Under the pieces are notes generated by a model. That model was not told the DNA's origin, searched no databases, and saw only the letters and a program-made list of their open reading frames with translations. The translations under genes and the position numbers were made by a program. 42,009 bases of DNA, taken from sequence record SRR22947725_1543; one strand, 5' to 3'. Each line of letters starts with the position of its first letter. The first letter of the stretch is position 1. This document shows positions 763-25,623 of the stretch, one piece after another.

Positions 763-2829
763 CTAATCTTCAATCAATGAAAGAACTTTACGCCCCATTC
801 CGGAAACCTTTTCTCGCTCTATCTCTAATTCAGTTAAAGCTTTAAATTTTGATAGGCCTCGCACATTATTGATCGGTGTATTCTTAATTCTCAAAACCTG
901 TAAGCTATAAGATTTTAATACTGATAAGTCGTGAAAATTCGAGTTATTACCATAAAACCTTTTCAACTTCAAAGATTTTATAGGTTTATATGAATAGATC
1001 TCCAAACCACTAACATTGAGTTCCTCTAAGCCCATAGAACCTAAACCATTCAAAATTCTAACGCCAGTATGAGATAAATTTAAATGATGAATTTTAAACG
1101 AAGATAACACGCCTATTTGTTTCAATTCCGGATTCCCGGAAAGATCTAAGTGCCCCCCTTCTGGCGTCGATTTGTAATCAACCTCGAGTTCACCTTTCAA
1201 AACATTCACTGAACTTAATAGGGCTTTAAAGAATATGGACCTCCCCTTATCCGTCTGAAATCTATTCAACAATGAATGCCCAAAGGAATTCCCAGCTCGA
1301 GTATAGCCTAAATTCTTTAACTGGAGCATCATATCAATCGAATAAGTTAGATCATTATTTCGGTCAGACTCCATACTCATGTAAATGGGTAACAACTTCC
1401 TTCTCAGGTCCAAGACCCTTTCACTCGCGGCGTCTTCCGAATATTTAAAAAAGGCGGCTATTTCTGCACGATATAGATAATAAATCGCCAAGCCATCTTT
1501 TGCCTGACGGTTGTCTTCATCAATATCTTGAATAGCTAATGCAGCCTCATAAATCAACTGTGAGTTATTCACCGCCAGTGCATCTTTTAGTCGAGTTAAC
1601 TGCTTATCGAGGAGTAACTGCTCTTTATTATCCCTTTCATCCTGTAAATTGGTCAAAGCCTGTTGAGCGACCTGCTCTTTATCCTCCAATTGCTTCAATA
1701 GATTCCCCTGAATAACAATGAAGCCAGCAAGAAGGCTTATAAAAACGCCTATAAAGATGAAAATAGAAGCAAAGAATAACTTATTTCGTTTATAGATTAG
1801 TAAGAGTTGCTTAAATAAACCCGCTTCTTCTGCCTCCGTCGCAAAACCGCTCTGCCATGAATCCACTTCGTCGATCATTTCTTCTACTTCTTGATAACGA
1901 TTTTCTGGCATCCGTGCCATTGCCTTCAGGCAAACGGCTTCAAGGCTCGCAGGTATACTGACATTTTTATTTCTCTTTCGAGGCGCGACTATTTTACCTC
2001 GGACTGTTTTGCGAAGTTGATCTGTAGTATTGCGGCCATTAATAGGGATCTCATAAGTCAACAAACTGTACAGCAATGCTCCCAGTGAATAGATATCTGT
2101 CCTTTCATCGCGAATCGAATGTTTTACTTTCACCTGCTCAGGCGCCATAAACCCCGGAGTTCCCTTGATGCGGTCATTGCGGGTCATAGTATGTATTTCT
2201 GAAGCATCTAAAGAATCCATATCCATCAGAGACTCTTCTGCATCAATATCTCGATTGGTTATTTTCCCTAGCCCCCAATCACAAAGAAGCACTTCACCAT
2301 AGTTACTGATTTGAACATTATCGGGTTTAATATCTAAATGAATAACGCCCTTTGAATGGGCATAGGCAACAGCCTCGCAAATCTTTCTAAAAATCTGCAT
2401 CAAAGCCTGTATGGGATAACGACGCAAAGAATCACTATTTCCTTTTTGTAATTCTGTCACCAATGTACTTAAACTTTGGCCCCTATTAAGTTTCATGGTG
2501 AAATAAGGAGTCCCTCCATCATCAATTCCCAAATCGTAAACCGGCATAATATTGGGATGCTGAAGAAAGGCAGTCATGCGAGCCTCGCGCAAAAAATTCT
2601 CTCTAGTCTCAGGAGTTTCTTCATTGATTAAGACTGTCAAAGCTACTAAACGGCCAGTGGTATTATCCTTAACAGAATAAACTTCTTTCATTCCGCCTCG
2701 AGCAATAAACTCTGGTTCGGTATAGCGCGTTCCACCTTGCAATAACTCGTGATATATAGTCCCAGAATTTTCTTTAAACTCTTGGGCCATATGAAAAAGG
2801 CCTTGCCATGCTGAAGGTTCCGATTCCAT
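763..2829 (-). CDS. Membrane Ser/Thr protein kinase with C-terminal leucine-rich repeats and atypical (WNK-like) lysine placement
   Basis: Motifs ARGGMKEVY, FLREA, HPNI, HLDIKPDN, DWG, GTPGFMAPEQ, DIYSLG; TM segment LFFASIFIFIGVFISLLAGFIVI; coiled coil; LRR units (LDLSGN, LNLSHT, LNVSGL, LRIKNT). Confidence 0.92.
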   Translation of the reverse strand: MESEPSAWQGLFHMAQEFKENSGTIYHELLQGGTRYTEPEFIARGGMKEVYSVKDNTTGRLVALTVLINEETPETRENFLREARMTAFLQHPNIMPVYDLGIDDGGTPYFTMKLNRGQSLSTLVTELQKGNSDSLRRYPIQALMQIFRKICEAVAYAHSKGVIHLDIKPDNVQISNYGEVLLCDWGLGKITNRDIDAEESLMDMDSLDASEIHTMTRNDRIKGTPGFMAPEQVKVKHSIRDERTDIYSLGALLYSLLTYEIPINGRNTTDQLRKTVRGKIVAPRKRNKNVSIPASLEAVCLKAMARMPENRYQEVEEMIDEVDSWQSGFATEAEEAGLFKQLLLIYKRNKLFFASIFIFIGVFISLLAGFIVIQGNLLKQLEDKEQVAQQALTNLQDERDNKEQLLLDKQLTRLKDALAVNNSQLIYEAALAIQDIDEDNRQAKDGLAIYYLYRAEIAAFFKYSEDAASERVLDLRRKLLPIYMSMESDRNNDLTYSIDMMLQLKNLGYTRAGNSFGHSLLNRFQTDKGRSIFFKALLSSVNVLKGELEVDYKSTPEGGHLDLSGNPELKQIGVLSSFKIHHLNLSHTGVRILNGLGSMGLEELNVSGLEIYSYKPIKSLKLKRFYGNNSNFHDLSVLKSYSLQVLRIKNTPINNVRGLSKFKALTELEIEREKVSGMGRKVLSLIED

Positions 2830-2836
2830 AAAAACC

Positions 2837-3439
2837 TTAGGAAAGCTCAGCTTCGAGACGAAGGATTTCTTTAAATAATCTTTTTTGAACGCGGTTTTTA
2901 TAGACGATTATGGTATTCTCCGGGAAACCGAGGTCTTGAGCAATACTCCTTACGGCTTCACCTGTCATCAAACGCTCAAAAGTAAGTCTTACACTTTCTG
3001 CTAAATCATCTTGAATGCGATCCCAAGCCATCTTGGATATATAAGTTTCCCACTCTCTCTGTGCTATATCTTCTATATCGGGTAAAGAAACCTGACTTAA
3101 ATAATCCTCCAATTCCTTCTTCTTGGATTCGTCGGCATTTTCAAGTTGACGAGAACTCTTTGACATAAAGCGCTTAACTGTATTTTTCGTCACCGTTGTC
3201 AGCCAACTGCGAAAACGCCCCTTTCCCGGGTCATATTCAAAATCGGGTAAACTTTTCCACGCCTTGAGCAGTACTGCTTGAACAAGATCTTGAGTATCGT
3301 GATAATTGATATTCATGCTTAAGACAACGGCATAAATATAGCCTTGATAATAATCAGTAAATTCCTCCCAGGACTGATCATCATGAGAGTTCTTTATCTT
3401 TTGCAGCAAAGTCTCTCGAGTATTTAAAGGCTTTTTCAT
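2837..3439 (-). CDS. ECF-family RNA polymerase sigma factor
   Basis: Sigma2 motifs (WEEF..YY, DTQDLVQ, GRFRSWL) and a C-terminal sigma4 HTH (SIAQDLGFPENTI..YKNR); ends 7 bp before the kinase start. Confidence 0.92.
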   Translation of the reverse strand: MKKPLNTRETLLQKIKNSHDDQSWEEFTDYYQGYIYAVVLSMNINYHDTQDLVQAVLLKAWKSLPDFEYDPGKGRFRSWLTTVTKNTVKRFMSKSSRQLENADESKKKELEDYLSQVSLPDIEDIAQREWETYISKMAWDRIQDDLAESVRLTFERLMTGEAVRSIAQDLGFPENTIIVYKNRVQKRLFKEILRLEAELS

Positions 3440-3489
3440 GACTCGGTCTATTTCTTGTTAGTTGGCTAATATACGCTACAACAAGTTTA

Positions 3490-3672
3490 TTACTTTCTCT
3501 CTGACTTAGCATTAGAAAAAAAGTAAAAAATCACCGCTAAGCCTCCAAAAAGCAAGCCCGCAAAAAGCCACTTTATTGAATCAGCACTTTCTTTCTTCTG
3601 GACGGCTGCCCACAAAAATAATGCACAAACAACATGGGCAATCGCTGTAATAATTAAAAATTGAATCAGCAC
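3490..3672 (-). CDS. Small two-TM membrane protein, unknown function
   Basis: 60-aa ORF with GTG start, two hydrophobic segments and a basic tail; fills the gap between menG and the ECF gene on the same strand. Confidence 0.6.
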   Translation of the reverse strand: MLIQFLIITAIAHVVCALFLWAAVQKKESADSIKWLFAGLLFGGLAVIFYFFSNAKSERK

Positions 3673-3721
3673 TTTCTATATCCAGTTAATGATATTGCTC
3701 AACCCAAAAATAGGAATAACA

Positions 3722-4444
3722 CTACTTGATAACTTGGGCTGTATAAATGGTGACTGTCCCCATACACTTGCTATCTGTGTGTAAGACTTTAAAACCACAC
3801 TCTTCAAGAAGGTTGTTCATCTCTAATGGTTTGAGGCAATTTTGAATAGAGCGATCCAAGTACTTGTAAGCCTCCACTTTTGAACCGTAAATTTTGGCCC
3901 CTAGGGGTAAAGCAAGTTTCATGTAAAGTGAATGGAAAAAGCTAATGGGCTTAAAGTCAGGAGTTGTTAAATCCAGCATACAAATGATGCCATCTTTCTT
4001 CAGAGTTCTGTGACACTCTAAATAAAAACGCTTTAAGTCTGGTAGGTTCCTCAAAACAAATGCCGATAAGACTGCCGAGAAACTATCATCCTTAAATGGT
4101 AAATCGGATGCAGACACCTGAGCTAAGCTATCTGCATTGCCTGAATTAGCTGCTATCTCTAAAAAGCGCCAAGAAATATCCGTAGAGACAAACTTCGCCT
4201 GAGGAAGTTCTTTCGCGGCCAAAGCTGATAATGAGCCTGGCCCACAGCCTATATCTAAAACTGGGGCATCCTGTAAATAGGTCTCTAATCGCTTAAGTTG
4301 AGAGCGACGCCAACCTTGGTCCATTCCCAGCGAAATGAAAGTATTTATCTTCTCATAAGAGTCGGCAATTTCCTGAAACATGGAAGAAATCCCCTGCTCC
4401 CACTCTTTCCTGGATTCTTTTGTGATACTTTTTAAATCACTCAT
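3722..4444 (-). CDS. menG: Demethylmenaquinone methyltransferase (UbiE/MenG family)
   Basis: MFQEIADSYEKINTFISLGMDQGWR, SAM motif VLDIGCGPG, LPFKDDSF, F.LRN, AYKYL..SI; quinone operon context. Confidence 0.88.
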   Translation of the reverse strand: MSDLKSITKESRKEWEQGISSMFQEIADSYEKINTFISLGMDQGWRRSQLKRLETYLQDAPVLDIGCGPGSLSALAAKELPQAKFVSTDISWRFLEIAANSGNADSLAQVSASDLPFKDDSFSAVLSAFVLRNLPDLKRFYLECHRTLKKDGIICMLDLTTPDFKPISFFHSLYMKLALPLGAKIYGSKVEAYKYLDRSIQNCLKPLEMNNLLEECGFKVLHTDSKCMGTVTIYTAQVIK

Positions 4445-5286
4445 TTTAATTCTCCTTTATCTGCCAACTCCATGAGAGGCTGATAATATTCAGGTGTAAC
4501 CGCCGCTTTTAAAAGGCCATGCTCAAAAGCTTTATTCAAAAAGAAACTCAAATCAGCCAATTCTGTTTGTCCCATACTAAAATGCAAACGATCGAGGTAA
4601 TCTATTGGATCAGCGATATCCGGGTACTGAGTTAAACAGGCTTTCTCAAAGGAAAGCTTATCTCGATAAGATTCTAATGGTGCTGATTGTAATGTTCTGA
4701 TCAAAGATGAAAGTTCGGCTTCCTTCCATTCGATTTGCTTCTTGTTAATAACACAACTGGCAAAAACAATATTGCGAGAAAATTTTTGTTGCCAAATCTC
4801 CCCAAGGTCATAGGTATACGAAAATTCTTGCTTCTGAGTCAAAGCCTCATCACCAATTGTTAAAGCTGCGCTACAATTGGGGATACCCAGCTTCACATCG
4901 TAAGGCAAACATTTATAGTCGTCAATGCCAACTTCTCGCAATAAAATCTCCATCACCGCGACAGATGTTGCAGAAGCGCTAGTAATGCGAATATCTACGC
5001 CCTGAAGTTCTTCTAAAGGCACATCCGACAATAGGCGCACTGAATCCACATAGCCTTTGGAAGAAAGGCCTATACCTGGAACTAATAAGTATTTTTGTGG
5101 ATTTTTGGCATACTCCATAAAGGACACCAGTGACACATCCAATTCATCGTCATGGATCATCTTATTCAAAACCCCGGGGCGCTCAACATGCAATTGCCAA
5201 CCAGTTAACTCTTCCGGCTTCATTTTTTGAAAAGGGTAATAAAAAGGGTAGGCGTTTAGGTATGAAATGAAACCGATTCTAAGCAT
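4441..5286 (-). CDS. mqnA: Chorismate dehydratase MqnA (futalosine menaquinone pathway); start reassigned to ATG at 5286
   Basis: MLRIGFISYLNAYPF, G.V.SV.L, SATS, L.IGDEAL, YDLGE.W motifs of the MqnA/MqnD family. The ATG overlaps the ubiX stop. Confidence 0.85.
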   Translation of the reverse strand: MLRIGFISYLNAYPFYYPFQKMKPEELTGWQLHVERPGVLNKMIHDDELDVSLVSFMEYAKNPQKYLLVPGIGLSSKGYVDSVRLLSDVPLEELQGVDIRITSASATSVAVMEILLREVGIDDYKCLPYDVKLGIPNCSAALTIGDEALTQKQEFSYTYDLGEIWQQKFSRNIVFASCVINKKQIEWKEAELSSLIRTLQSAPLESYRDKLSFEKACLTQYPDIADPIDYLDRLHFSMGQTELADLSFFLNKAFEHGLLKAAVTPEYYQPLMELADKGELK

Positions 5287-5899
5287 CTGAACCTTTCTCA
5301 AAAGTTTCACTTTTCCAACGCGTAAACAAGTCGTGTTCTGTTTCTCCCAATTGATCTAAAGCCTTACCTGCGACAAAATCAATTAAGCCCTGGGCACTCG
5401 TATTGGCATGATAAAACCCTGGAGAGGCCGGCAGAACAACCGCGCCTGCCTGGGTGACCTTGGCCATATTTTCAATATGTATCAAATTGAGTGGAGTCTC
5501 CCTGACAACCAAAATTAAAGGGAAACGCTCTTTGAGAGAAACATCCGCGGCTCTCTCAACTAAACTACCGGCATAACCTGAAGCGATACCTGCTAAACAC
5601 TTAACTGAACAAGGTATGACCAACATACCGTCATGACGAAAACTACCACTGGAAATACCCGCACCGAGATTACTGTTTTTCTCTAAAAAAAGGCGGTCTC
5701 TTTCATCTACAGTTAACTCTTCGACAAATTCTTTTATTGTCTGACCCATTTCATGAAGCCACACCTGCTTCGCTATCTGTGTAAAGACTACGTGAACTTC
5801 TGCCCCAAGTTTTAAAAGAGCTTTTATAGCTGATGCTGCATATGGGCTACCACTAGCGCCAGAAACTCCGATTACGTATTTGCGCTTTTTCTCTTTCAT
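5279..5899 (-). CDS. ubiX: Flavin prenyltransferase UbiX
   Basis: GVSGASG, ISSGSF, PCS, RAADVSLKER, VRETP, PASPGFY motifs. Confidence 0.95.
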   Translation of the reverse strand: MKEKKRKYVIGVSGASGSPYAASAIKALLKLGAEVHVVFTQIAKQVWLHEMGQTIKEFVEELTVDERDRLFLEKNSNLGAGISSGSFRHDGMLVIPCSVKCLAGIASGYAGSLVERAADVSLKERFPLILVVRETPLNLIHIENMAKVTQAGAVVLPASPGFYHANTSAQGLIDFVAGKALDQLGETEHDLFTRWKSETFEKGSDA

Positions 5900-9901: not shown

Positions 9902-11173
9902 ATGGATATCAACAGACGACAGGCCCTCAAAGGCGCCGCTGCGATCAGCGCCTTTCAAATCGTACCCAGAAGATTATTAGGCGGGCAAGGCTACATCCCC
10001 CCTAGCGAAGAACTGACAAGAGGCATTATCGGCTGTGGTGGTATTTCTAGAGCTCATCTTGGTTATAGAGGCGCTAGAATTATTGGCCTTTGCGATGTGG
10101 ACCAAGGTCGACTGGCGGGACAGAAGAGCAAATGTGAAAGCCGCGGCAACAAAAGCATTACCGGTCATACTGATTTCCGTGAAATGATCGCCAGAGATGA
10201 CATTGACATCATCACAGTTGCCACCCCTCCTCACTGGCATGCACTCATGTCTATCATGGCAGCGGAAGCCGGCAAAGACGTCTGGTGTGAAAAGCCTATG
10301 ACTCGGACAATTGCCGAAGGTAAAAGAGTTATCGAGGCCTGCCGTAAAAATGGTACAATCTTCAGAATTAATACCTGGTTCCGCTTTACTGGTAACTTCT
10401 ACGGCTTCGGCTCAACTGTAAAAGAAATTAAAAAATTAGTCGACTCAGGACTTCTGGGTGGACCTCTGAAGTTCACTGTTGGTAAAGGGCAAGGCTTTAA
10501 TTGGAAGCATAACTGGAGTGGTAAAGCAGAATTGCCACGCCAAGACATTCCTAAAGGTTTTAACTACGACATGTGGCTTGGACCTGCACCCTACAAGCCT
10601 TACAGTAGACACCGAACTCACGGTACTTTCCGTGGTTATTGGGACTATGATGGCGGCGGCCTAGGAGATATGGGCATGCACTATCTCGATCCCGTCCAAT
10701 ATATCATGGGCAAAGACGAAACTAGTCCTGTTAAAGTTGAAGTTGACACCGACGACCAACACCCGGATGCCGTAGGCAGTTGGCGTCGGATTGTCATGAC
10801 TTATGCTGATGGAACAGAACTCCATCTCGATGGCGATGGCTCTCTTGAAAACAAACCTTTTATCGAAGGACCTAAGGGTAAAGTCTTTAGGGGCTTTAAA
10901 TCCGACATCCCAAATCTTAGAGAGCAACTCAAGGGTTTTCCTGATCCTAAACCTCAAAATGATAACTTCTACCAATGCGTCAGAAGTAGAGAAAAATTTG
11001 CTCTCAACGAGGAAAATGCCCACCGATCTACCACTATTGTCAATATAGGAAAGATTGCTCTACGCCTCAATCGTACCCTAAAGTTTGACCCGGTTAAACA
11101 AGAGTTTATCGGAGATGATGCCGCTAATAGACTTGTCGATCAACCCAATCGATCCCCCTGGAATCTTATTTAA
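9902..11173 (+). CDS. Tat-exported Gfo/Idh/MocA family oxidoreductase
   Basis: Twin-Arg signal INRRQALK, GIIGCGG, ATPPHWH, CEKP, YDMWLGPAP, FRGYWDYDGGGLGDMGMHYLD. Confidence 0.93.
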   Translation: MDINRRQALKGAAAISAFQIVPRRLLGGQGYIPPSEELTRGIIGCGGISRAHLGYRGARIIGLCDVDQGRLAGQKSKCESRGNKSITGHTDFREMIARDDIDIITVATPPHWHALMSIMAAEAGKDVWCEKPMTRTIAEGKRVIEACRKNGTIFRINTWFRFTGNFYGFGSTVKEIKKLVDSGLLGGPLKFTVGKGQGFNWKHNWSGKAELPRQDIPKGFNYDMWLGPAPYKPYSRHRTHGTFRGYWDYDGGGLGDMGMHYLDPVQYIMGKDETSPVKVEVDTDDQHPDAVGSWRRIVMTYADGTELHLDGDGSLENKPFIEGPKGKVFRGFKSDIPNLREQLKGFPDPKPQNDNFYQCVRSREKFALNEENAHRSTTIVNIGKIALRLNRTLKFDPVKQEFIGDDAANRLVDQPNRSPWNLI

Positions 11174-11183
11174 GGAGCCCACT

Positions 11184-13571
11184 ATGCACAAATTTTTACT
11201 CACTGCCCTCTTCATCAATTCTGTCTACGGACAAAGCACTCCTGAACTCTGCCAAAAACTCGCCAATAACGGCTCTGGCAAAGATTCACAAGCACGAACT
11301 GTCCTGATGAAAAAAACACACAATATTGCGTTTAAAAGTCAAAACGAACAAGCAAAGCATGAACTCGCACTTCTTCAGGCACTCATTAAAACGAAAGACC
11401 AAGGACTCGCGACATTTTACCTTCAACAACTCGAGCTGTGCGGTTCTAAAGCCAGTATACCTGTAATCGGTAAGCTTCTTAAGAATAAGTTTTTGGGTTC
11501 TAACGCAGCACGAACTTTAATCGAGTTAGCCCAATACGATCTAAGCACCACTAATGAAATCTTAATAAAAGCTCATAACTCGGCTCAAGACGAAACCAAG
11601 CTCTATATTATTAACGCCATGTCCGTGTTAGGACTAAAAGACTCACGTGCTATGAAAATCTACCATAGCTCTCTTAAGGTTGAGGACTTAAAAAAAGTAG
11701 CCTTACAAGGGCTCGCTATGGCAGGTGATCGTTCAGACCAGAAGACATTCATCTCTGCCTTTGCTAAAGCTGCAAAAACAGCTCGTGGAACAGCATTTCG
11801 CCTCAACCTCGTTTTTGCCAAAAATTTAGCTCGAAGCAACAAAGGTACCGCCAACCAGCACCTCCTAAAACTTCGCACTCTAATTGGTAAAAATGAAGTT
11901 CCTTACCAAGCTGGAATTGTTGCTACTACTATTGAGATAAATGGCATACGTGAACAAACTATCACCTCTCTTTTAGATGCAAACATCCATACTCAAAGTG
12001 CATTCCTTCGCATTCTCAAAATGCACAACTTCAAGAAATCGACTGCACTTTTCAAAAATATTGTAGATAAGAATCCAAACCAGAGTTTTTACCTAGAAGC
12101 CTTCGCTGCGGTTAATCAAGAGGCTGCCAAAAATTACATTTCTTCTGCTCTAAGTAGTCAAAATCAAGAACTCAAAAATAGTGCTGGAAAACTGGCCATT
12201 GACTTTGGGAGTGACTTCACTCCGGCGCTCATTACAACTCTCATGGCAAAAGGCGAATTCAGTAAAGAAGATATTAAAATTGCCAAAAGTATGATTCATC
12301 CGGCAAAAATAAGTGAAGTGACTTCTCTTTGGAAGAATCTTTCACCGACAATAGAACTCGCTTTCATTAGCATGACTGAAAATATCCGCCAACCGGAAGT
12401 CGCTACAAAAGTACTCAGTGCCGCAGAAAGCAAAGATAGCAAAGTCAAAAAAGAAGCTCAAAAGGTTCTTAAAAATGTTGTCTCAGCTCGCGACTTACCA
12501 AAACTAAGAAAACTCTTAGACAAAGAAACAAACTCTAGCGCGGTACGCTATATACAGGCAGGCCTCTCCAGCTCTTTGGCTCAAAGTGATAAAAAAACTA
12601 TTGATCAAATAGCTCGAGAGTTAAGCCAAAAGCGCCATGACAAACTTCTAGTAGCTTTAGCTAAAAGTAATCAACCGCAAGTATTACCTCTTCTCAAGAA
12701 AGACCTCACAAATAGCAAGCCAAACCTACAGAAAGAAGCCATTAAGAGCCTAAGTTCGATGAAAGCTGAGCTCAATTTAGAGGCCCTTGTATTTGCGGTT
12801 GAGAAAGTTTCTGATGAGAGAAATAAAATTCTTGCAGTCCGAGCTTTAGCTAATTCGTTAAATCAAAGTACTCAACCAGTCTCGATGAAAAAAGCTTTTC
12901 TTGAACGCGCCCTAAAGAGCAAACTTCAGCCTAATGAAGCTAAAATGATGCGAGATATTCTTAAAAAGATATCACCAGCTTCTAAAAAGAAGAAAAAAGC
13001 TAAAGCCAAACCATCCGAATCAACAAAAACCTACAGCCCACTTTTTAATGGCAAAGACTTAAATCAGTGGGACAACCAAGGTGATTATAAAGTTGTCGAT
13101 GGCGTCATCTCAGGAGCAAATGGTAAACTATGGAGTAAGAAAACCTATAGTAACTTTAGTTTAAAATTTGAATTTAAACTTGAGCCAGGGACAAACAACG
13201 GCTTAGCAATACGTACCCCTAAAGGACAAAAACCTTTAGAATTACAGATTATCGACAACCCTCATCCAAGATATGCTAAAATTAAAGACTATCAGCGTCA
13301 TGGGTCGATCTACAGCTACGTCCCGGCAAAAATAGGCTTTCTTAAAAAGGCGGGTGAATGGAATAAACAAGAGGTCATATGTGATGGTTCAATGGTCAGC
13401 GTCATCCTCAATGGCACAATAATCCTCGAAGCCGATTTAAGTACCGTCAAACCTCAGCCTGGTAGCCGCTATAAAGTTAAATATATCAATGACGCGAAAG
13501 AAGGTCATATTGGTTTTCTTGGGCATAAAGCTCCTATTCAGTTCAGAGCCATCGAGATTAAGGAATTATAA
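11184..13571 (+). CDS. Secreted HEAT-repeat protein with C-terminal DUF1080 (3-keto-disaccharide hydrolase-like) domain; start reassigned to 11184
   Basis: AAGGAG RBS before ATG 11184; signal peptide; helical repeats; Lys-rich linker; DUF1080 motifs PLFNGKDL..W, NNGL, ELQIID, HGSIY, GEWN..EV, GHIGFLGH, FRAIEIKEL. Confidence 0.88.
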   Translation: MHKFLLTALFINSVYGQSTPELCQKLANNGSGKDSQARTVLMKKTHNIAFKSQNEQAKHELALLQALIKTKDQGLATFYLQQLELCGSKASIPVIGKLLKNKFLGSNAARTLIELAQYDLSTTNEILIKAHNSAQDETKLYIINAMSVLGLKDSRAMKIYHSSLKVEDLKKVALQGLAMAGDRSDQKTFISAFAKAAKTARGTAFRLNLVFAKNLARSNKGTANQHLLKLRTLIGKNEVPYQAGIVATTIEINGIREQTITSLLDANIHTQSAFLRILKMHNFKKSTALFKNIVDKNPNQSFYLEAFAAVNQEAAKNYISSALSSQNQELKNSAGKLAIDFGSDFTPALITTLMAKGEFSKEDIKIAKSMIHPAKISEVTSLWKNLSPTIELAFISMTENIRQPEVATKVLSAAESKDSKVKKEAQKVLKNVVSARDLPKLRKLLDKETNSSAVRYIQAGLSSSLAQSDKKTIDQIARELSQKRHDKLLVALAKSNQPQVLPLLKKDLTNSKPNLQKEAIKSLSSMKAELNLEALVFAVEKVSDERNKILAVRALANSLNQSTQPVSMKKAFLERALKSKLQPNEAKMMRDILKKISPASKKKKKAKAKPSESTKTYSPLFNGKDLNQWDNQGDYKVVDGVISGANGKLWSKKTYSNFSLKFEFKLEPGTNNGLAIRTPKGQKPLELQIIDNPHPRYAKIKDYQRHGSIYSYVPAKIGFLKKAGEWNKQEVICDGSMVSVILNGTIILEADLSTVKPQPGSRYKVKYINDAKEGHIGFLGHKAPIQFRAIEIKEL

Positions 13572-13651
13572 AATAAAGTTTTATATATAAATATGTAACA
13601 TTAAGACAAACAGCAGCGTACTGATACAATATCATAAAACATGAGACTTAA

Positions 13652-14755
13652 ATGAAACTCTTCGTCCTATTATTGTTAGTATCATCATTAGCTGCTGTTG
13701 AACCTGGTTCATTTGAAGAGAAATCTTCTTCTTACAGCTGGAAATGCCAAGAAATTCAAGAATTACCGAATGTCCTCATTCTTGGTGATTCCATCTCCAT
13801 AGGCTACACTCTACAAGTCCGTCAATACCTCAAAAACATTGCCAATGTGCATCGACCCATTACGCCAGAAGGTGGACCTGAAAATTGTGGATCTTCAAGT
13901 AAATCAAGAGAACGTCTAGCGGCATGGTTAGCTGGCAAGAAATGGGATATCGTTCACTTCAATGCAGGCCTGCACGACTTAAAACGAGTCGCCAAATCGG
14001 GTAAATCTACCGCTCAAACTCCCGTTGCCACACCCCTAGAAGATTATAGACAGAATTTACAGGCCATAGTCAGCCTCCTCAAAAAGCACTGTAAAAAAAT
14101 AATCTTTGCATCGACAACGGCCTATCCTCAAGGAGTGACTCCACTTCGCCTCCCTAAAGATGCCAAAATCTATAATGATATTGCGACTGAAGTTATGATT
14201 AAAAATCAAATCCCGATTAATGACCTCTACGCTCTAACCGTTGACCGTCTAGCTGAGATGCAAATGCCAAAAAATGTTCACTTCAAAGAAAAGGGTTCAG
14301 CCATACTCGGCAAACAAGTTGCAAGCGTCATTGCTCGAGACCTCAAATTGGGCTCATTAAAAATCCCACCTTATGATACCGCCTCCGAAGCACAAAAAGC
14401 CGCTCGAGAGCTGCTATCTAAGAAAAAATATAATGATGCAGAACAAGCTTTACTTTTCGCCGCGGCACTCAGCACAAATACCATCAGTAAAGCAAGGTGC
14501 ATAAGCCAAATCTCAAGCATTTATATCAATGACGAAGAATGGGACAGGGCCTGTCAGCTTTTAAAACAAGTCAAAGCACCGACTCACAATCATCCATTTG
14601 GAAACGTCATTCGGCTGAGTCTTTTAAGGTGCTTAATTAAAATGGGAAAACCAGCAGAAGCACATAACCTAGTTAAAGAAATCAAAAAGCTAAAGCTTAC
14701 ACCATCTCAGCTTAAAACCTTAGGGTTTATGGAAAAGGCTCTGGGTCAAATTTAG
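13652..14755 (+). CDS. Secreted SGNH/GDSL hydrolase with C-terminal TPR-like helices
   Basis: Signal peptide; ILGDSISIGY, FNAGLHD, NVHF; helical C-terminus of about 120 aa. Confidence 0.85.
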   Translation: MKLFVLLLLVSSLAAVEPGSFEEKSSSYSWKCQEIQELPNVLILGDSISIGYTLQVRQYLKNIANVHRPITPEGGPENCGSSSKSRERLAAWLAGKKWDIVHFNAGLHDLKRVAKSGKSTAQTPVATPLEDYRQNLQAIVSLLKKHCKKIIFASTTAYPQGVTPLRLPKDAKIYNDIATEVMIKNQIPINDLYALTVDRLAEMQMPKNVHFKEKGSAILGKQVASVIARDLKLGSLKIPPYDTASEAQKAARELLSKKKYNDAEQALLFAAALSTNTISKARCISQISSIYINDEEWDRACQLLKQVKAPTHNHPFGNVIRLSLLRCLIKMGKPAEAHNLVKEIKKLKLTPSQLKTLGFMEKALGQI

Positions 14756-14872
14756 GCCTTTAAAAAATGGCGGGCTTTAATCGCTGGCCATTTTAATTCA
14801 CTTTTCATCAAATGAATACGTCAATTGGTACATCATATGCGCCATCCTAAAATTAGAACAAGGATGGGAAAT

Positions 14873-14971
14873 ATGGTTACCTTAAAACAAAAAATAGCTT
14901 TTGCACTGATGCTTAATCTTCTCTTCATCAGCTATGCTTACTGGTATATGAAATACATCATCAATCAATAA
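14873..14971 (+). CDS. Candidate small membrane protein (32 aa; 44 aa from alternative ATG at 14837)
   Basis: MVTLKQKIAFALMLNLLFISYAYWYMKYIINQ*, preceded by purine-rich AAGGATGGGAAAT; one hydrophobic helix. Below the ORF-track size cut-off. Confidence 0.4.
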   Translation: MVTLKQKIAFALMLNLLFISYAYWYMKYIINQ

Positions 14972-15005
14972 AAAAGCTACTGAATGATTAGATCATCCAG
15001 TAGCT
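14970..15005 (-). terminator. Intrinsic terminator of the GntP-sulfatase-dehydrogenase operon
   Basis: Minus strand AGCTACTGGATGAT-CTA-ATCATTCAGTAGCT followed by TTTTT. Confidence 0.8.
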
Positions 15006-15027
15006 CAGATAAAGACTAAATTAGTAA

Positions 15028-15807
15028 TTATACCGTTGCTTTAGTCGCACCAGTACTGATACCACCATCGACCAACAAAGTCTGACCCGTTACATACTCA
15101 CTTGATTCTGAAGCTAGGAACACAACTGCCCCATCTAAATCATTAGGCTTACCTGGACGGCCAGCAGGAATACGGTCACAAATATACTCAAGCCACTCTT
15201 CGTTTTCATAAAGAACTTTATTCTGCTCAGTCTTAAACCAACCTGGAGCCAAACAATTAACGGTAACACCAGATTTACCCCAATCATCAGCAAGACTCAT
15301 AGTCAACTGCTTGACACCGCCACGACTGGCACAGTAAGGCCCAAGACCGGCATATCCTGCTACACTCGTTACTGAGCCAATATTGATAATGCGTCCATAC
15401 TCGGCGTCTACCATATGACGTCCAACTTCCTGAGCAACGAAAAAAGTACCGCGAAGGTTGGTATTTAAAATAAGATTCCAATCATCCCAAGTCACATCAA
15501 GTGCGGGTTTTCTAACATTACAGCCGGCATTATTCACCAAGATGTCGATTTTACCATAATGCGCCATGGTTTCAGCAACCATATTCTTAATACTATCGTG
15601 ATCATGCACATCTAAAGCAACCGCAAAAGCTTTACGGCCAAGGGCTTCAATTTCCTGCTGAAAGTCGACAAGATCTTCTTTTTTTCTAGCTGTAATAACC
15701 AAATCAGCTCCTGCCTTCGCCAAAGCACGGCCAAAATACTGACCTAAGCCACGGCTGGCGCCAGTCACAATGGCAACGCGACCTGATAAATCAAAAAGTT
15801 CACTCAT
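15028..15807 (-). CDS. SDR oxidoreductase, gluconate 5-dehydrogenase / KduD-like
   Basis: LFDLSGRVAIVTGASRGLG, NNAG, INIGS, Y..S(R)GG, APGWFKT, RIPAGR.G.P.DL.GA.VFLAS. Confidence 0.88.
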   Translation of the reverse strand: MSELFDLSGRVAIVTGASRGLGQYFGRALAKAGADLVITARKKEDLVDFQQEIEALGRKAFAVALDVHDHDSIKNMVAETMAHYGKIDILVNNAGCNVRKPALDVTWDDWNLILNTNLRGTFFVAQEVGRHMVDAEYGRIINIGSVTSVAGYAGLGPYCASRGGVKQLTMSLADDWGKSGVTVNCLAPGWFKTEQNKVLYENEEWLEYICDRIPAGRPGKPNDLDGAVVFLASESSEYVTGQTLLVDGGISTGATKATV

Positions 15808-15816
15808 TTAAATCTC

Positions 15817-16854
15817 CTAAGCGTAAGGTTGTAAAATAACTTTATTTAAACCGGCCTCACGGCTATATAGGCGATCAAACCATTCCTGGCCTTTAGTCAT
15901 CGGTTCTACAGCACTTATGGCGTCACTTACATCGATATCACCACGCTCAAGAAACTCTAAACAGGCAGGATACTCACCAGCAGAAGCGCAAGATCCCTGG
16001 ATCTTTAATTCACGTGTAACGACCTTTTGCAAAGGAAGGTTTATAGTTGGCGAGATATTACCAATGATCGTCATTGCCCCGCCTTTTCTGAGGCAGTCAA
16101 TTCCCATATTAATTGTGGCATCGGCACCAACGGCTTCGATAACGACATCTGCCATCTTTCCACCGGTGATCTTTTCAACTTCAGCAACTACATCGACATT
16201 GCCGCTATTTAGACCATAGTCTGCACCGTGCTTACATGATTTAGCTAAACGATCGTCATCAAGATCAACAACAACAAGTTTAGCAGCGCCTACTAGCCTG
16301 ACCGATTGTACGACCATTTGACCAATAATACCGGCGCCGATGACGACAACTGTGCTACCCAGCTTAATATCTGTAATATTTACGGCATGAAAAGCTATCG
16401 ATAGAGGTTCTACCATACAGGCCTTCGCGAAGTCTAGATTTTTACCAAACTTGTAAAGTACCCGTGGAGGCAAACTTATATATTCGGCAAAAGCTCCAGC
16501 ACTTTTATATTCATCACAAGAAACCCCAATAACGCGGCGATCTTCACAAAGGTTGATATCTCCAGATTGGCAGAATTCACAAACTCCACAGTAAACTGTA
16601 GAATCAAAAGTAACTCTTTCACCAACAGCATAGCCGCTCACATCTGAACCGACTTCAACTATACTTCCTGAAGCTTCATGGCCCATTACCATTGGCGGCT
16701 GACGTCTACCAGTACTGCCATCCATACCGTGAACATCGCTACCGCAAATACCACAGGCCTCTATCTTGATTAAAACTTCGTCTGTAGGACACGACGGCTT
16801 TTCGACGTCCTGTACCTCAAAACTATTATATTTGGTTAAAACTAAAGCTTTCAT
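15817..16854 (-). CDS. Zn-dependent (MDR) polyol/sugar-acid dehydrogenase
   Basis: GICGSDVH, GHEASG, structural Zn motif CGVCEFC..C, GAGIIG. Confidence 0.92.
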   Translation of the reverse strand: MKALVLTKYNSFEVQDVEKPSCPTDEVLIKIEACGICGSDVHGMDGSTGRRQPPMVMGHEASGSIVEVGSDVSGYAVGERVTFDSTVYCGVCEFCQSGDINLCEDRRVIGVSCDEYKSAGAFAEYISLPPRVLYKFGKNLDFAKACMVEPLSIAFHAVNITDIKLGSTVVVIGAGIIGQMVVQSVRLVGAAKLVVVDLDDDRLAKSCKHGADYGLNSGNVDVVAEVEKITGGKMADVVIEAVGADATINMGIDCLRKGGAMTIIGNISPTINLPLQKVVTRELKIQGSCASAGEYPACLEFLERGDIDVSDAISAVEPMTKGQEWFDRLYSREAGLNKVILQPYA

Positions 16855-16888
16855 AAAAAATTCCTCTTCTCTTCACACGCCGAAGTTA

Positions 16889-18397
16889 TTAGTAACGACC
16901 GTCTGTTCCAAACATGTCCGTCTTCGAAGGACGTGGACGTTTGCGAACTGAGTGATCTGGCTCTCCAGTCACACGATCAAATTCATCTGGAGTTCTTTTA
17001 GATGGAATGTAGTCCCCAGTTTTTACATACCACTCTTTCATTTTGCCCTTAAGAGTCTCAAAGACCTCTTTATAAGCAGGATTGCCGACAAGGTTATTAG
17101 TCTCATTGGGATCCTTTTCTAAGTCAAATAATTCATACTTAGGACGAGGAGAATTAAAACAAGCCTGTTGAAGTGGAGTCAATTCATTGGCTTTCTTTAA
17201 CTTCAGCATTGCCTGCCAAGTTAAACTGCGACCCGCATCTGCAGAAGGAGTTGTTGGCAAGTCATTATAAGTATTGCGAATTAATTTATAACGCTGATTA
17301 CCAATAGAACGGGCATGATCTTCGTAATCGTGCCAATGATCTTCACCAAAAGCATATTCGCGCACTTCTTCATTCGGATCTTCAAGAATACCAGTAAAAC
17401 TTACTCCCTCAAAAGAGTCTTCATTATCAAGCCCAGCCAGCTCAAGAATTGTCGGTGCTAAATCAATTGAACTCACCAAACTCTTACTGATGGTACCGGC
17501 TTCAACGCCTGCAGGCCACTTGACGATAAAAGGTGTTTTGATACCGCCGTCATAAAGAGAAGTCTTATCTCTTGGGAAAGGACGACCGTTGTCACTCATA
17601 AAAATGACCACAGTATTTTCTGCCACACCCTGAGCTTCAAGCTCTTTCATGACCTTACCAACATACGAATCCAAGCGACCGATTTCATCATAATATAAAC
17701 GTAGATCTTCGCGAACATCCGGATGGTCCGGTAAATGTGAAGGAATGATAACATCACTTGAACGGTGCGGTGGGTTCAAAGCGCCATCTTCATAGGCTCT
17801 ATGAGGGTCCAAAGCTGCAAACCACATAAAAAATGGCTTATCTTTAGGGCGATTTTTAAGAACTGGTAGCCAATCTTCGCAACCACTCGGCTTTTTATCT
17901 GCGACCATCACAGGCTTAGTTTTCCCGTCTCCAGTTGGCAACTGAAAACCAGCGACATTGGCTTCAAGAACATCATCAAAGCGGTTCTTGACATTTTCTC
18001 CCATATGCCATTTCCCTGATGCAGCGGTGTAATAACCGGCATCTTTCAGCTTTTCTACAAAAGTAACCGACGATTTCGGTAAAGGCCAATGAAGCTGCTC
18101 TGCACCTGTATTGTGCGGGTACCTTCCCGTAATGATACTTGCGCGACTTGGACTACATGAACTGGCAGTCAAATAAGCGTGATCAAAACGCATACCATCT
18201 TCAGCCATCTGATCAATGAAAGGAGTTCTGATAGTGGGGTGCCCATAAGCTCCACTATCATCCCAATTCATGTCATCGGCGATAATCAAAATGACATTAG
18301 GCCTTTCTTCTAGACTCGTTGAACATGATGCTCCAAAAAGAATCACACACAACAAAGATAAAAACTGACACGCAGCAGTTTTGATATTCATATACAT
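16889..18397 (-). CDS. Formylglycine-dependent sulfatase (N-sulfoglucosamine sulfohydrolase-like), probable lipoprotein
   Basis: PNVILIIADD, CSPSRASIITG, GKWH, DPHR, SDNG.PFPR.K..LYD.G; lipobox-like FGASC. Confidence 0.92.
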   Translation of the reverse strand: MYMNIKTAACQFLSLLCVILFGASCSTSLEERPNVILIIADDMNWDDSGAYGHPTIRTPFIDQMAEDGMRFDHAYLTASSCSPSRASIITGRYPHNTGAEQLHWPLPKSSVTFVEKLKDAGYYTAASGKWHMGENVKNRFDDVLEANVAGFQLPTGDGKTKPVMVADKKPSGCEDWLPVLKNRPKDKPFFMWFAALDPHRAYEDGALNPPHRSSDVIIPSHLPDHPDVREDLRLYYDEIGRLDSYVGKVMKELEAQGVAENTVVIFMSDNGRPFPRDKTSLYDGGIKTPFIVKWPAGVEAGTISKSLVSSIDLAPTILELAGLDNEDSFEGVSFTGILEDPNEEVREYAFGEDHWHDYEDHARSIGNQRYKLIRNTYNDLPTTPSADAGRSLTWQAMLKLKKANELTPLQQACFNSPRPKYELFDLEKDPNETNNLVGNPAYKEVFETLKGKMKEWYVKTGDYIPSKRTPDEFDRVTGEPDHSVRKRPRPSKTDMFGTDGRY

Positions 18398-18412
18398 ACC
18401 CTGATTTATTTA

Positions 18413-20140
18413 TTATTTAATGAAAAAACTAAGTGCAAAAACTACACCGAAACCGACAAAACCAATTATTGTTTCAACGACAGTCCAGGTCTTAAGAGTA
18501 TCCTTAACACTCATGCCGAAAAAGCGGTTCACAAGCCAAAAGCCGGAGTCATTTACATGGGAGAATACCGTCGATCCACAGGCAACCGCAATTGCAACTA
18601 AACCAAGAGCCGGAGCACTTGGAGTTATACCGGCACCTGCCATGATACCCGCCATAATCCCACCGCCAGTAACCATGGCTACTGTCGCGGAACCTTGAGC
18701 TACACGTACTAAGGTGGCAATGATAAAGGCCAATAGAACTGGAGGCATAGAAGAATCTTTCATCATATGGCCAAGCATCTGTCCAACTCCCGAATCGATC
18801 AGTACCTGCTTAAAGACACCACCAGCACCAGTGACAAGAATGATAATACCAGCTGGTTCCAAGGCCTTAGTCGCAATCTCCTGAACTTCTTCACGAGAAT
18901 AGCCGCAGAACTTACCGAGAGTATAGAAAGAAAGTATTGTCGCAATCAACATGGCGACAAAAGGGTCACCTAAAAATTTAATGACCAACTTTACATTTTC
19001 ATCTACAGGAAAATAACCGATAACTGTACTGGCTAAAATTAACGTCAATGGTGTTAAAATAAGGAACATAACCAGACCAAAACTTGGCAGTGGCTTCCCT
19101 TCTTCAGGTTCACTAAAATCAACAAATTCAGGAATACCGATGGTCACTCTCTTTGAGATGTAGCGACCAAACATAGGACCGGCAATAATCATCGCTGGTA
19201 GACCTGCTATACAACCAAAAAGAATAACCCAACCCAAATCTGCCCCTAATAAATCGGCAACGGCAATTGGCCCTGGTGTTGGAGGGATCATGGCATGAGT
19301 GACACCTAGACCTGCTAGAAGCGGAATACCATAATAAAGAAGCGGCTTACCTGTCCTATGAGCCAAGCTGTAGACGATAGGAATAATGATGATCAAACCG
19401 ACATCTAGGAATACGGGAATTGAAATTAAAAAGCCAGTCAAACCTAAAGCCCAAGGAGCTTTATCATCACCAAACTTCTCGAGGATGTTTTTGGCTAATC
19501 TCTCAGCTCCCCCAGAAACTTCTAGCATCTTACCGAACATGGCACCAAGTCCAACAACAATAGCGACAAAACCAAGAATACCGCCCATGCCGCCTTTAAC
19601 CGTGTCGATGATACCTTTTTTCTTAAAGCCCACCAAAGTACTACTACTTTGAATATCGCTGTAATTAACTTGAACTTTTTCTACTTTTTCAGCATCAAAA
19701 TCTACATCTACCAGCAAATGATCATCATTGACCTCGAGGATATTTTCGGCTTCAATCGTCTTTTCTGGGGTATCTAGATGAAAGGGACCTTTCAAATCGC
19801 CTTTTTTATGATCGCCACTTGGCTTTTTATAATCAAATACTGCGGAAAAGTGATCTTTCATTTTATTATTTCTGGCGGAGATCTCTTCGGCAGTTTGAGA
19901 GCTGGCCACATCTGGTGCTTCATAGCCTTTTAAAACCACTTTCGTATCCGTCGTCGATAAAATAGGCATTCCTGCACCAATACCGACAAGAAAACTTACA
20001 AGAAGCAAAGTTACAAAAGCATGGAGCTTCATAACAATGATAAGATACAAGATAAGAGCAACGCCAAAAACTGAGGCTAAAATCAACTGAAGATGAGTCG
20101 GAGACGAGCCACCCGCAGCCAGTAACAATGATAAGTTCAT
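18413..20140 (-). CDS. GntP-family gluconate:H+ symporter with a large N-terminal loop insertion
   Basis: KLHAF..L, GGMGGILG, GAMFGKMLEVSGGA, IPVFLDVG, PPTPGP, GAGGVFKQVL, RVAQGSATVA, SHVNDSGFW. Confidence 0.93.
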   Translation of the reverse strand: MNLSLLLAAGGSSPTHLQLILASVFGVALILYLIIVMKLHAFVTLLLVSFLVGIGAGMPILSTTDTKVVLKGYEAPDVASSQTAEEISARNNKMKDHFSAVFDYKKPSGDHKKGDLKGPFHLDTPEKTIEAENILEVNDDHLLVDVDFDAEKVEKVQVNYSDIQSSSTLVGFKKKGIIDTVKGGMGGILGFVAIVVGLGAMFGKMLEVSGGAERLAKNILEKFGDDKAPWALGLTGFLISIPVFLDVGLIIIIPIVYSLAHRTGKPLLYYGIPLLAGLGVTHAMIPPTPGPIAVADLLGADLGWVILFGCIAGLPAMIIAGPMFGRYISKRVTIGIPEFVDFSEPEEGKPLPSFGLVMFLILTPLTLILASTVIGYFPVDENVKLVIKFLGDPFVAMLIATILSFYTLGKFCGYSREEVQEIATKALEPAGIIILVTGAGGVFKQVLIDSGVGQMLGHMMKDSSMPPVLLAFIIATLVRVAQGSATVAMVTGGGIMAGIMAGAGITPSAPALGLVAIAVACGSTVFSHVNDSGFWLVNRFFGMSVKDTLKTWTVVETIIGFVGFGVVFALSFFIK

Positions 20141-24225: not shown

Positions 24226-25623
24226 ATGTCAGAAACTGAAAGTAAAATCAAAGTCGTCTGTCCCAATTGCTCCACCAAGCAATTCGTGGATGCCGATAGA
24301 GCCTTTACTAAAACTTTCTGTGAAAGTTGCTCGGTTCGTTTCACTATCCCCAAACTTTTTGGGAAAATCCTTCTACATGACGTCATCTCAAATGATGAAT
24401 TCTCAACGACTTACAACGCCACTCAACTCGAAGAGGGCCACAAATGTCACCTCAGAATCTTCGATGAAAAAATTTCTAAGAATGATAGTATTTTAAATGC
24501 TCTCAAAGAACAGATTTATAAAGTCAAAAAAATTAATAATAAAGCCATATGTAAAGTCCTTAGTTATGGCTTCGTCGGTAATGATTTTTTTATAGAGACT
24601 GAAGCCGATGACAACGGTTCACTCAAGTCGCGTATTATGAATGAAAAAATTTCACAGCGTGCCGCATTACAATACTCAATCTCTCTGATTGAATGTCTTA
24701 AGGACATAAGCCGCTCAGGACTCATTTTAGGTAATATTAAAACAAGTACCTTGCGCTGCCTACCCGATAGGCGAATTCGACTTGATGACTGTGGATTCAC
24801 CTGGACCGTCGCTTCTCTCTTATCTCAAACTCACAAAAGTATAGAAGCAATAAATAACCATAATTACGCCGCTCCAGAAACAATCAAAGAACTCGAAACC
24901 AGCCCCAAGTCCGACCTTTATGCCGCTGGTTGTGTCATTTATGAGCTGCTCTGTAAAATCTCCCCATTTGAAGAAAAAGAGACTCCCAAGAAAATCTACA
25001 AAGCGCATCTCGAAGAAGAGGCTATCTCAATTATCAAGAGAAAACCAACAATCCCTATTGAGATAAATACTATGGCGATGAAGATGATTGCCAAAGATAG
25101 CAATGACCGCCCAGACGATCTTAAGCAACTTATTGATTGCTTTGCCATCAATCTTAAACATGTTGAAGAAGTTCGAGTTGATGAAATCAAAAGAGAATTC
25201 GACATGCCGGACCCCAGTCAAACTTTGCGACCGCGGCCACCGACTGAAATTGACCTCGATATTTTCTCTGGTATCTCAAAAGAAGAAACTCAAAACAATC
25301 AAAATACCGAGACCGTTGCAGTGGATAAAGAAGCTACAAATACCGACCACTTACTAGATCCCAATATTAAAGACGTTGAACCAGATATAAAACTGCAAGA
25401 TACTGCTGTCAACATGCAGGACTTCGAAGACCTTGAAGCCGCCTACAACTCACGGCAAAATTTCAAAATGTTGATTATTGCTATCATCATCGTCGTCATA
25501 ATTGTCGCCAGTGGATTATTTTTTGTATTTAATAGTGGTCACACTAACACTACTCCAACAGCGCCAGAAAATATCAATACAGAAACAGAGTCAACAGTAC
25601 CTCAGCTAAAAAGCAGAGAATAA
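24226..25623 (+). CDS. Zn-ribbon plus degenerate protein-kinase-fold membrane protein (probable pseudokinase)
   Basis: CPNC..CESC; retains YAAPE, SDLYAAGCVIYELL and DRP, but catalytic motifs are degenerate; C-terminal TM. Confidence 0.8.
   Translation: MSETESKIKVVCPNCSTKQFVDADRAFTKTFCESCSVRFTIPKLFGKILLHDVISNDEFSTTYNATQLEEGHKCHLRIFDEKISKNDSILNALKEQIYKVKKINNKAICKVLSYGFVGNDFFIETEADDNGSLKSRIMNEKISQRAALQYSISLIECLKDISRSGLILGNIKTSTLRCLPDRRIRLDDCGFTWTVASLLSQTHKSIEAINNHNYAAPETIKELETSPKSDLYAAGCVIYELLCKISPFEEKETPKKIYKAHLEEEAISIIKRKPTIPIEINTMAMKMIAKDSNDRPDDLKQLIDCFAINLKHVEEVRVDEIKREFDMPDPSQTLRPRPPTEIDLDIFSGISKEETQNNQNTETVAVDKEATNTDHLLDPNIKDVEPDIKLQDTAVNMQDFEDLEAAYNSRQNFKMLIIAIIIVVIIVASGLFFVFNSGHTNTTPTAPENINTETESTVPQLKSRE

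Follow-up and report, generated by a model that had tools for sequence, protein, structure and literature searches.

The window analysed here, a 42,009-nucleotide (nt) stretch of DNA from sequence record SRR22947725_1543, encodes on its minus strand a receptor serine/threonine kinase of the Hanks type, in which the lysine expected in strand beta-3 is replaced by Thr65 and a lysine, Lys48, stands in the glycine-rich loop (P-loop). The host of this receptor kinase is a marine Lentisphaerae bacterium. The same exchange, called the swap below, was found to define a clade of bacterial kinases in which the two lysines exclude each other. Because of the position of Lys48, its exclusivity with the beta-3 lysine, the invariance of Glu82 and the catalytic machinery, and the precedent of the eukaryotic kinase WNK1, we consider it probable (roughly 70%) that the product is catalytically active, with Lys48 taking over the part of the beta-3 lysine.

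An earlier reading made from the letters alone (the sequence-only reading) had pointed out a lysine in the loop ARGGMKEVY and a threonine in place of the beta-3 lysine, and both codons were found as described (Table 1). HMMER alignments to solved structures agreed with this assignment: Lys48 fell opposite the serine of GFGGMS in PknB and the third glycine of ATGGMG in PknA, Thr65 fell opposite the VAVK lysine of PknB (Lys40) and of PknA, and neither alignment contained gaps in the P-loop/beta-3 region. In an AlphaFold2 (AF2) model of the kinase, which was built with 66 family sequences and reached a predicted local distance difference test score (pLDDT) of 86 and a predicted template modelling score of 0.85, residue 48 starts beta-2 (residues 48–55) and residue 65 lies within beta-3 (residues 61–67). 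The VAIK lysine of beta-3, a hallmark of Hanks-type kinases, is thus represented by Thr65, and the other hallmarks, namely the HxDxKxxN catalytic loop, the DFG aspartate, APE and the alphaC glutamate, are all present, in line with the sequence-only reading, which had listed them as intact. Given that Thr65 aligns to the VAVK lysine of PknB and PknA, we filed the kinase as a Hanks variant and not as a typical member.

A word-indexed protein search with the kinase returned 3755 matches at E ≤ 0.001, and the best 120 of these were classified together with the query. Among the 121 sequences, 111 carried Lys/Ala at the positions of Lys48 and Thr65, five carried Lys/Thr and four carried Gly/Lys, and the remaining one was left unaligned as its kinase domain lay beyond the first 420 residues used. 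The five with Lys/Thr were the query and its four closest relatives, which were 79–90% identical; the usual beta-3 residue is alanine, and threonine is local to the orthologue group of the query. In an exhaustive search of 1.84 billion representatives, 875,765 kinases passed E ≤ 0.001 and 42,154 passed E ≤ 1e-30, the best 150 being listed. A set of 249 pooled proteins contained 313 domain hits, of which 25 failed to reach from the P-loop to DFG and were removed, leaving 288 related kinase domains. In this set, 203 domains were swapped, 83 were canonical with the reverse arrangement, two had neither lysine and none had both, and we conclude from these counts that chance substitution does not account for the swap. 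The beta-3 residue of the swapped domains was Ala in 197, Thr in four and Gly in two, and the Lys48 position was Lys in 203/203.

Constraint on the rest of the active site was also evident in these swapped domains. Glu82, His164, Asp166, Asn171, Asp184, Gly186, Pro230 and Glu231 were each kept in all 203, the catalytic loop read HLD in 201 and the metal-binding motif DWG in 202, and the catalytic residues were kept more tightly than in the 83 canonical domains. The two domains with neither lysine had also lost Glu82 and the DFG aspartate. Two further collections gave the same picture, with 42 swapped, 48 canonical and no doubly lysine-bearing kinases among 93 open reading frames (ORFs), and 117 Lys/Ala kinases among 118 new short-form relatives, the other (P0256) being Asn/Ala. 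The co-variation of the beta-2 lysine with loss of the beta-3 lysine, for which the sequence-only reading had called, was therefore present in 116/116, 203/203 and 117/118 homologues, and the beta-2 lysine was never found where the beta-3 lysine was kept. Among the paralogues of Lentisphaera marina, the Lys48 codon was AAA in 42 and AAG in 13, and Ala65 used all four alanine codons; as the codons varied in this way, both amino acids have been held through synonymous turnover.

Origin of the swap and comparison with known kinases

In a maximum likelihood (ML) tree of 89 distinct kinase domains from the fetched loci, 41 of the 41 swapped rows fell on one side of a single branch with an SH-aLRT support of 98, nested among canonical kinases, and their nearest canonical neighbours came from the same L. 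marina genome. When 18 further loci were added and the two trait columns were masked, 58 of 58 swapped rows fell on one branch side with a support of 94; both trees were quick, unrooted ML searches without bootstraps. Since the swapped rows form one clade, the swap took place once and was strictly kept afterwards, so that the co-variation does not stand for correlated changes that recurred. The two-residue swap proposed from the sequence alone was upheld, but not as a peculiarity of one gene, as it is a clade-wide trait with one origin.

The closest solved relatives of the kinase were PknB and PknA, in sequence (E 1.1e-32) as well as in fold. A Foldseek search with the AF2 model gave Mycobacterium tuberculosis PknB as the best match (E 1.1e-20, template modelling score 0.87 on the target), and WNK3 (5o26) was at rank 46 with a score of 0.74 and 23% identity. 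No WNK was present among the best 60 PDB sequence matches to the kinase domain, and a sequence search against solved structures with residues 36–70 alone returned PknA and PknE and no WNK. Given that the fold is closest to PknB, that WNK3 ranks only 46th and that the clade is nested among canonical bacterial kinases, the likeness to WNK kinases is convergence and not WNK ancestry, as the earlier reading had supposed. The clade therefore consists of Hanks kinases that lack one hallmark of the superfamily and carry the active-site feature of WNKs without being members of the WNK family.

Like PknB and PknA, the window kinase has an N-terminal kinase domain, one transmembrane (TM) helix and an extracytoplasmic sensor, and the TxT of its activation loop aligns with TQT of PknB. 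In contrast to the swapped kinase, PknB and PknA keep the VAVK lysine with Ser or Gly at the third P-loop position, and they are RD (Arg-Asp) kinases whereas HLD prevails in the swapped family. The sensor of the window kinase is not of the PASTA type.

A relocated catalytic lysine is the textbook peculiarity of the WNK kinases, in which the motifs corresponding to HLD and DWG of the swapped clade are HRD and a chloride-binding DLG. We take GRGSFK to be the P-loop of WNK1, which places its Lys233 at the P-loop position of Lys48. WNK1 is reported to be active through Lys233 of beta-2, and WNK1–4 resemble the swapped clade in lacking the beta-3 lysine, with a glycine-loop lysine of beta-2 proposed as its replacement, and in keeping the alphaC glutamate, the catalytic loop and the metal-binding aspartate (PMC4718504). 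The window kinase shares this active-site feature, that is, no beta-3 lysine and a lysine at the third glycine of the P-loop, where the equivalence to Lys233 is drawn from the GxGxxG register and the literature. It differs from WNKs in being a TM receptor with a periplasmic domain, and the beta-3 residue is Ala or Thr in the swapped clade and Cys in WNK1. Neither the DLG motif nor the autoinhibitory and CCT-like (PF2) domains of WNKs were found in it, the Pfam domains being Pkinase and a weak leucine-rich repeat (LRR) alone. Chloride sensing, as described for WNKs (PMC4718504), found no support as the motif is DWG and not DLG. The eukaryotic sugar kinase POMK offers a different arrangement, in which the alphaC glutamate is absent and the lysine pairs with the glutamate of a DLD motif, unlike the swapped family with its invariant Glu82 and DWG aspartate.

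Seven families of bacterial pseudokinases (ActPs1–3, DLHK, GLW, CP1 and DYD) have been described in two surveys from 2025 that cover over 300,000 Ser/Thr kinases of bacteria and cite WNK only as a eukaryotic analogy in the text available to us (10.1101/2025.01.12.632604; PMC12599244). These families of the bSTK Atlas are like the swapped kinases in being without the VAIK lysine, and compensatory modes of ATP binding have been proposed for DYD and DLHK (PMC12599244). As far as the surveys describe them, they differ in belonging to actinobacteria, proteobacteria, cyanobacteria and firmicutes and in having Arg, Leu, Trp or Thr at the beta-3 position along with further motif losses; in the text of the surveys, exclusive of the supplementary tables, neither a glycine-loop lysine nor a member from Lentisphaerae/Kiritimatiellae is described for any of the seven. 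In the literature searched, which did not cover the supplements of the Atlas and of the ECF reclassification (extracytoplasmic function sigma factors) where these proteins may be listed, we found no published description of a WNK-style lysine swap in bacteria and no published expansion of sigma factor-kinase pairs in Lentisphaerae/Kiritimatiellae. The swapped kinases constitute a bacterial family that is very large and apparently undescribed, and the relocated lysine, treated as a eukaryotic trait in the searched literature, defines a whole bacterial clade.

Paralogue expansion and adjacent sigma factors

The closest public loci came from metagenome-assembled genomes of Lentisphaeraceae and Lentisphaerales, with 81% and 78% identity over the kinase domain. 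Paralogues were counted in the genome of L. marina, a cultured marine species (G001, the source of locus L017), and in a related metagenome-assembled genome (G002). The search of G001 gave 91 matches at E ≤ 1e-5, from which 84 regions were taken, and seven rows under 60 bits were left out (four further pieces of covered genes and three elsewhere). The resulting 85 kinase ORF rows comprised 55 swapped and 29 canonical kinases and one (L076 2492..4075) with its N-lobe removed by a TAA stop. One swapped row was a truncated duplicate of another locus, so that swapped kinases account for 54 of about 84 kinase genes in L. marina, or about two thirds. One of these 54 genes, L130 2596..4458, is a decayed paralogue with HEK for HLD and EWA for DWG. 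In G002, 106 matches were obtained at E ≤ 1e-10.

Copy numbers were low in the wider phylum. Of 61 evenly sampled genomes from the same phylum, a match at E ≤ 1e-66 was present in 16, with one or two per genome outside G001, and 17 of the 18 sampled loci outside G001, from 15 other genomes, combined Lys/Ala with HLD and DWG. These swapped low-copy kinases (L138–L153 and L155; G004–G060) had either short frames of 366–418 amino acids (aa) or long frames of 817–1405 aa. Short-form homologues numbered at least 1340 at E ≤ 1e-40 with 8000 candidates scored, and their named sources were Victivallis, Victivallales, Victivallaceae and Lentisphaerota. Pontiella and Pontiellaceae (Kiritimatiellae) were among the sources of the listed matches, and the loop there reads GGEK.

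Directly upstream of the window kinase lies a gene for an ECF sigma factor, and no anti-sigma gene was found beside it among the ORFs and Pfam matches. The pair is flanked by a TatA gene and by genes of the menaquinone pathway (UbiE-like, MqnA-like, UbiX-like and polyprenyl synthase). The order UbiX-MqnA-UbiE-sigma-kinase-TatA is kept in the orthologous locus L002, and the order from UbiX to the kinase is kept in L001, a locus that ends before any TatA. In L. marina, an ECF sigma ORF was present within 300 bp of 44 of the 55 swapped rows vs 3 of the 29 canonical rows (Fisher p 6e-10, a value that is overstated as paralogues are not independent).

Such a pairing recalls the ECF43 systems, in which an ECF sigma factor is the direct phosphorylation target of a Hanks kinase, EcfK that of PknS and EcfP that of PknT (PMC13147305; PMC7826278). 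In Xanthomonas citri (PknS/EcfK) and Vibrio parahaemolyticus (PknT/EcfP), the gene of a TM Hanks kinase is described as lying next to that of the ECF sigma factor, with no anti-sigma gene (PMC13147305; PMC7826278), the arrangement also seen in the window. By its description PknS is a typical Hanks kinase, unlike the swapped kinase. In ECF43 sigma factors, the acidic DxxD of region 2.2 is reported to be replaced by an uncharged QTTA-type motif with a phospho-threonine (PMC13147305). Region 2.2 of the window sigma factor reads DTQD, with D48, D51 and Q54 kept in the family consensus (33- to 39-member alignments), and its membership of ECF43 was rejected on this ground. The family further differs from ECF43 in an invariant N-terminal TRxTLL motif, which precedes region 2 in the sigma factors beside swapped kinases (window and L001–L088). 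Thr7 of this motif is invariant and Thr10 nearly so, and judging from this conservation both are candidate phosphoacceptor sites.

Probable catalytic activity and alternative explanations

If Lys48 does stand in for the beta-3 lysine, the ATP-anchoring lysine would have moved from beta-3, where the window kinase has Thr65 and most relatives have Ala, to the third-glycine place that opens beta-2, and Lys48 would there bind the ATP phosphates and pair with Glu82. The swap has a single origin, by this reading in a PknB-like ancestor of the Lentisphaerae/Kiritimatiellae lineage, and was followed by radiation to dozens of paralogues per genome, most of which are receptor kinases that have an ECF sigma factor gene as neighbour and no anti-sigma gene. 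A periplasmic signal would then act on the extracytoplasmic domain, here LRR-like, and activate the cytoplasmic kinase, which in turn would regulate the sigma factor encoded next to it, probably by phosphorylating it directly.

Several observations weigh against this scheme or parts of it. The short-form relative P0256 (406 aa) has Asn at the P-loop lysine position, a one-base change, with its other motifs intact. The co-variation of the two positions amounts to one evolutionary event in both trees. As to the output, 11 of the 55 swapped L. marina rows are without a sigma ORF within 300 bp, and none was found in the 2.5-kb flanks of the 17 swapped kinases from the 15 other genomes of the phylum sample; given these 17, sigma coupling is a trait of the expanded receptor subfamily and not of the swap itself. 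In addition, the sigma factor keeps an acidic DxxDxxQ region 2.2 and is therefore without the feature that makes ECF43 sigma factors phosphorylation-dependent.

The last point would also suit a pseudokinase that folds and may bind nucleotide but transfers no phosphate, and that would serve as a membrane-anchored, anti-sigma-like scaffold or a conformational switch for the sigma factor. With its acidic region 2.2 the sigma factor may not need phosphorylation in the manner of ECF43, and the kinase could fill the role of the anti-sigma gene that is missing beside it. Loss of the VAIK lysine makes a pseudokinase by the usual sequence definition, which asks for at least one of the VAIK lysine, HRD aspartate and DFG aspartate to be missing (10.1101/2025.01.12.632604; PMC12599244), and the swapped kinases fall under it, although by definition only. 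We nevertheless regard a pseudokinase as unlikely. The mark of a pseudokinase, relaxed constraint on the remaining catalytic residues, was not seen in the swapped class, where Asp166, Asn171, Asp184, Glu82 and APE are all invariant and tighter than in the canonical class, and such invariance is what an active enzyme, and not a dead one, would be predicted to display. Kinase domains that have truly decayed (L130, P0149, P0236 and the window ORF 24226..25623) lose several motifs together, and an invariant lysine at the third-glycine position is not something that a scaffold is known to require.

The kinase might instead be active with Lys48 in another role, such as glycine-loop gating, substrate binding or regulation, and catalysis would then proceed with no counterpart of the beta-3 lysine. 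In several canonical kinases the beta-3 lysine is reported to be dispensable for nucleotide binding, but according to the same source catalysis depends absolutely on a lysine, be it this one or one that takes its place in space (PMC4718504). Moreover, Lys48 lies on beta-2, the strand of WNK1 Lys233, and is perfectly exclusive with the beta-3 lysine, and Glu82, with which the ATP lysine forms its salt bridge, is still invariant, all of which makes a separate role for Lys48 improbable. The probability that the swap is an artefact, whether from faulty sequencing, from a pseudogene or from a chance substitution confined to a single gene, is negligible. No evidence for it was found, apart from an in-frame stop after residue 494 that the L002 orthologue does carry, but the frame of the window gene is open for 688 aa, the same two residues are present in the 79–90% identical orthologues and in L001 and L002, and their equivalents occur in hundreds of relatives; the artefact was excluded on this basis. 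In the L002 orthologue (3992..5473, identical to L039), which comes from a metagenome-assembled genome, the frame has 494 aa and similarity runs on in frame to residue 687; the stop is either real or an assembly error.

An extension of the preferred reading, in which Lys48 acts as the ATP lysine of an active kinase, is that the likeness to WNKs is functional too. A pocket left by Ala or Thr65 behind the ATP site would let a small cytoplasmic anion or metabolite gate autophosphorylation, in the way that chloride does in WNK1. Some 50 receptor kinases per genome would each combine the input of a periplasmic ligand with that of an intracellular ionic or osmotic cue and then switch on their own ECF sigma factor via the TRxTLL threonines, unlike ECF43; we regard this as very unlikely. 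If the swapped kinases are active, pipelines that equate loss of the VAIK lysine with a pseudokinase would give the wrong label to the principal signalling system of Lentisphaerae/Kiritimatiellae, the clade would provide an independent case from nature in which to study the reason for relocating this lysine, and its kinase-to-sigma pathway would be unlike the ECF43 model because the sigma factor keeps an acidic region 2.2.

Gene architecture and other features of the window

The positions of the kinase gene, its active-site residues and the sigma factor gene are listed in Table 1. Pfam assigned residues 38–311 of the 688-aa product to Pkinase (PF00069) with 123.5 bits (cut-off 31.7) and an E-value of 1.3e-35, and its C-terminal LRR (LRR_4) matches were weak and under the Pfam cut-off. 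A bilobal kinase fold is present in the AF2 model, in agreement with the best Foldseek match. The identity to the orthologues in L001 and L002 was 60–65% over the whole protein vs 78–81% over the kinase domain, indicating that the extracytoplasmic part diverges faster than the kinase domain. Between the kinase domain and the TM helix sits a GFATxAExA motif, which is absent from canonical relatives.

Table 1. Locations of the kinase gene, its domains and active-site residues, and the adjacent sigma factor gene in the window
Feature	Position	Strand	Evidence
Receptor Ser/Thr kinase gene, 688 aa: N-terminal helix, kinase domain, single TM helix, extracytoplasmic part (LRR-like repeats at the C-terminus)	763..2829	-	ORF, Pfam and AF2
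Kinase catalytic domain, approximately residues 36–330	1840..2724	-	Pkinase 38–311; PknB alignment 34–329; AF2 pLDDT 86
Glycine-rich loop ARGGMKEVY	2677..2703	-	Translation and alignments
Lys48 codon AAA, third-Gly position of GxGxxG, opening modelled strand beta-2; proposed ATP-anchoring lysine	2686..2688	-	Alignments, AF2
Beta-3 segment LVALTVL	2629..2649	-	Translation
Thr65 codon ACA, place of the canonical beta-3 (VAIK) lysine	2635..2637	-	PknB/PknA alignments
AlphaC Glu82	2584..2586	-	203/203 swapped domains
Catalytic loop HLDIKPDN, non-RD type	2317..2340	-	H, D, N in 203/203 and L in 201/203 swapped domains
DWG, equivalent of metal-binding DFG	2272..2280	-	D in 203/203 and W in 202/203 swapped domains
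APE, end of activation segment	2137..2145	-	P, E in 203/203 swapped domains
Juxtamembrane motif GFATEAEEA, residues 328–336, family-specific	1822..1848	-	Family alignment
Predicted TM helix, residues 351–375	1705..1779	-	Hydropathy peak of 2.8 (residue 355)
ECF sigma factor gene, 200 aa; its end precedes the start of the kinase gene by 8 bases; probable output partner	2837..3439	-	Sigma70_r2 4.3e-15; TIGR02937 63 bits vs cut-off 42.9

A second kinase-like ORF was found at 24226..25623(+), encoding 465 aa with a Pkinase match of 1.3e-19. A zinc-ribbon-like CxxC...CxxC lies at its N-terminus and a TM helix at its C-terminus; GxGxxG is missing, and HRD is replaced by LGN. From these motif losses it looks like a genuinely decayed pseudokinase, in contrast to the gene at 763..2829. 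The regions 9902..20140 and 27596..32062 encode a GFO/IDH/MocA oxidoreductase, a 3-keto-disaccharide hydrolase/HEAT protein, a sulfatase, a GntP permease and a 1488-aa autotransporter, which is ordinary content for a polysaccharide-degrading marine bacterium of the Planctomycetes-Verrucomicrobia-Chlamydiae group.

Between the UbiE-like gene and the sigma factor gene, a 60-aa ORF with two hydrophobic stretches was found at 3490..3672(-), and its region showed coding-like conservation in the aligned intergenic regions of L001 and L002; it may encode a small membrane protein of the sigma-kinase operon. The sequence upstream of the sigma factor gene (3440..3721(-)) also contains an 18-nt direct repeat, AGAAAGTGCTGATTCAAT, that occurs twice about 86 nt apart. 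In the same region, a block AACTTGTT about 40 nt before the sigma factor start is shared by the window with L001 and L002 and may represent the -35 element of a promoter of the ECF type.

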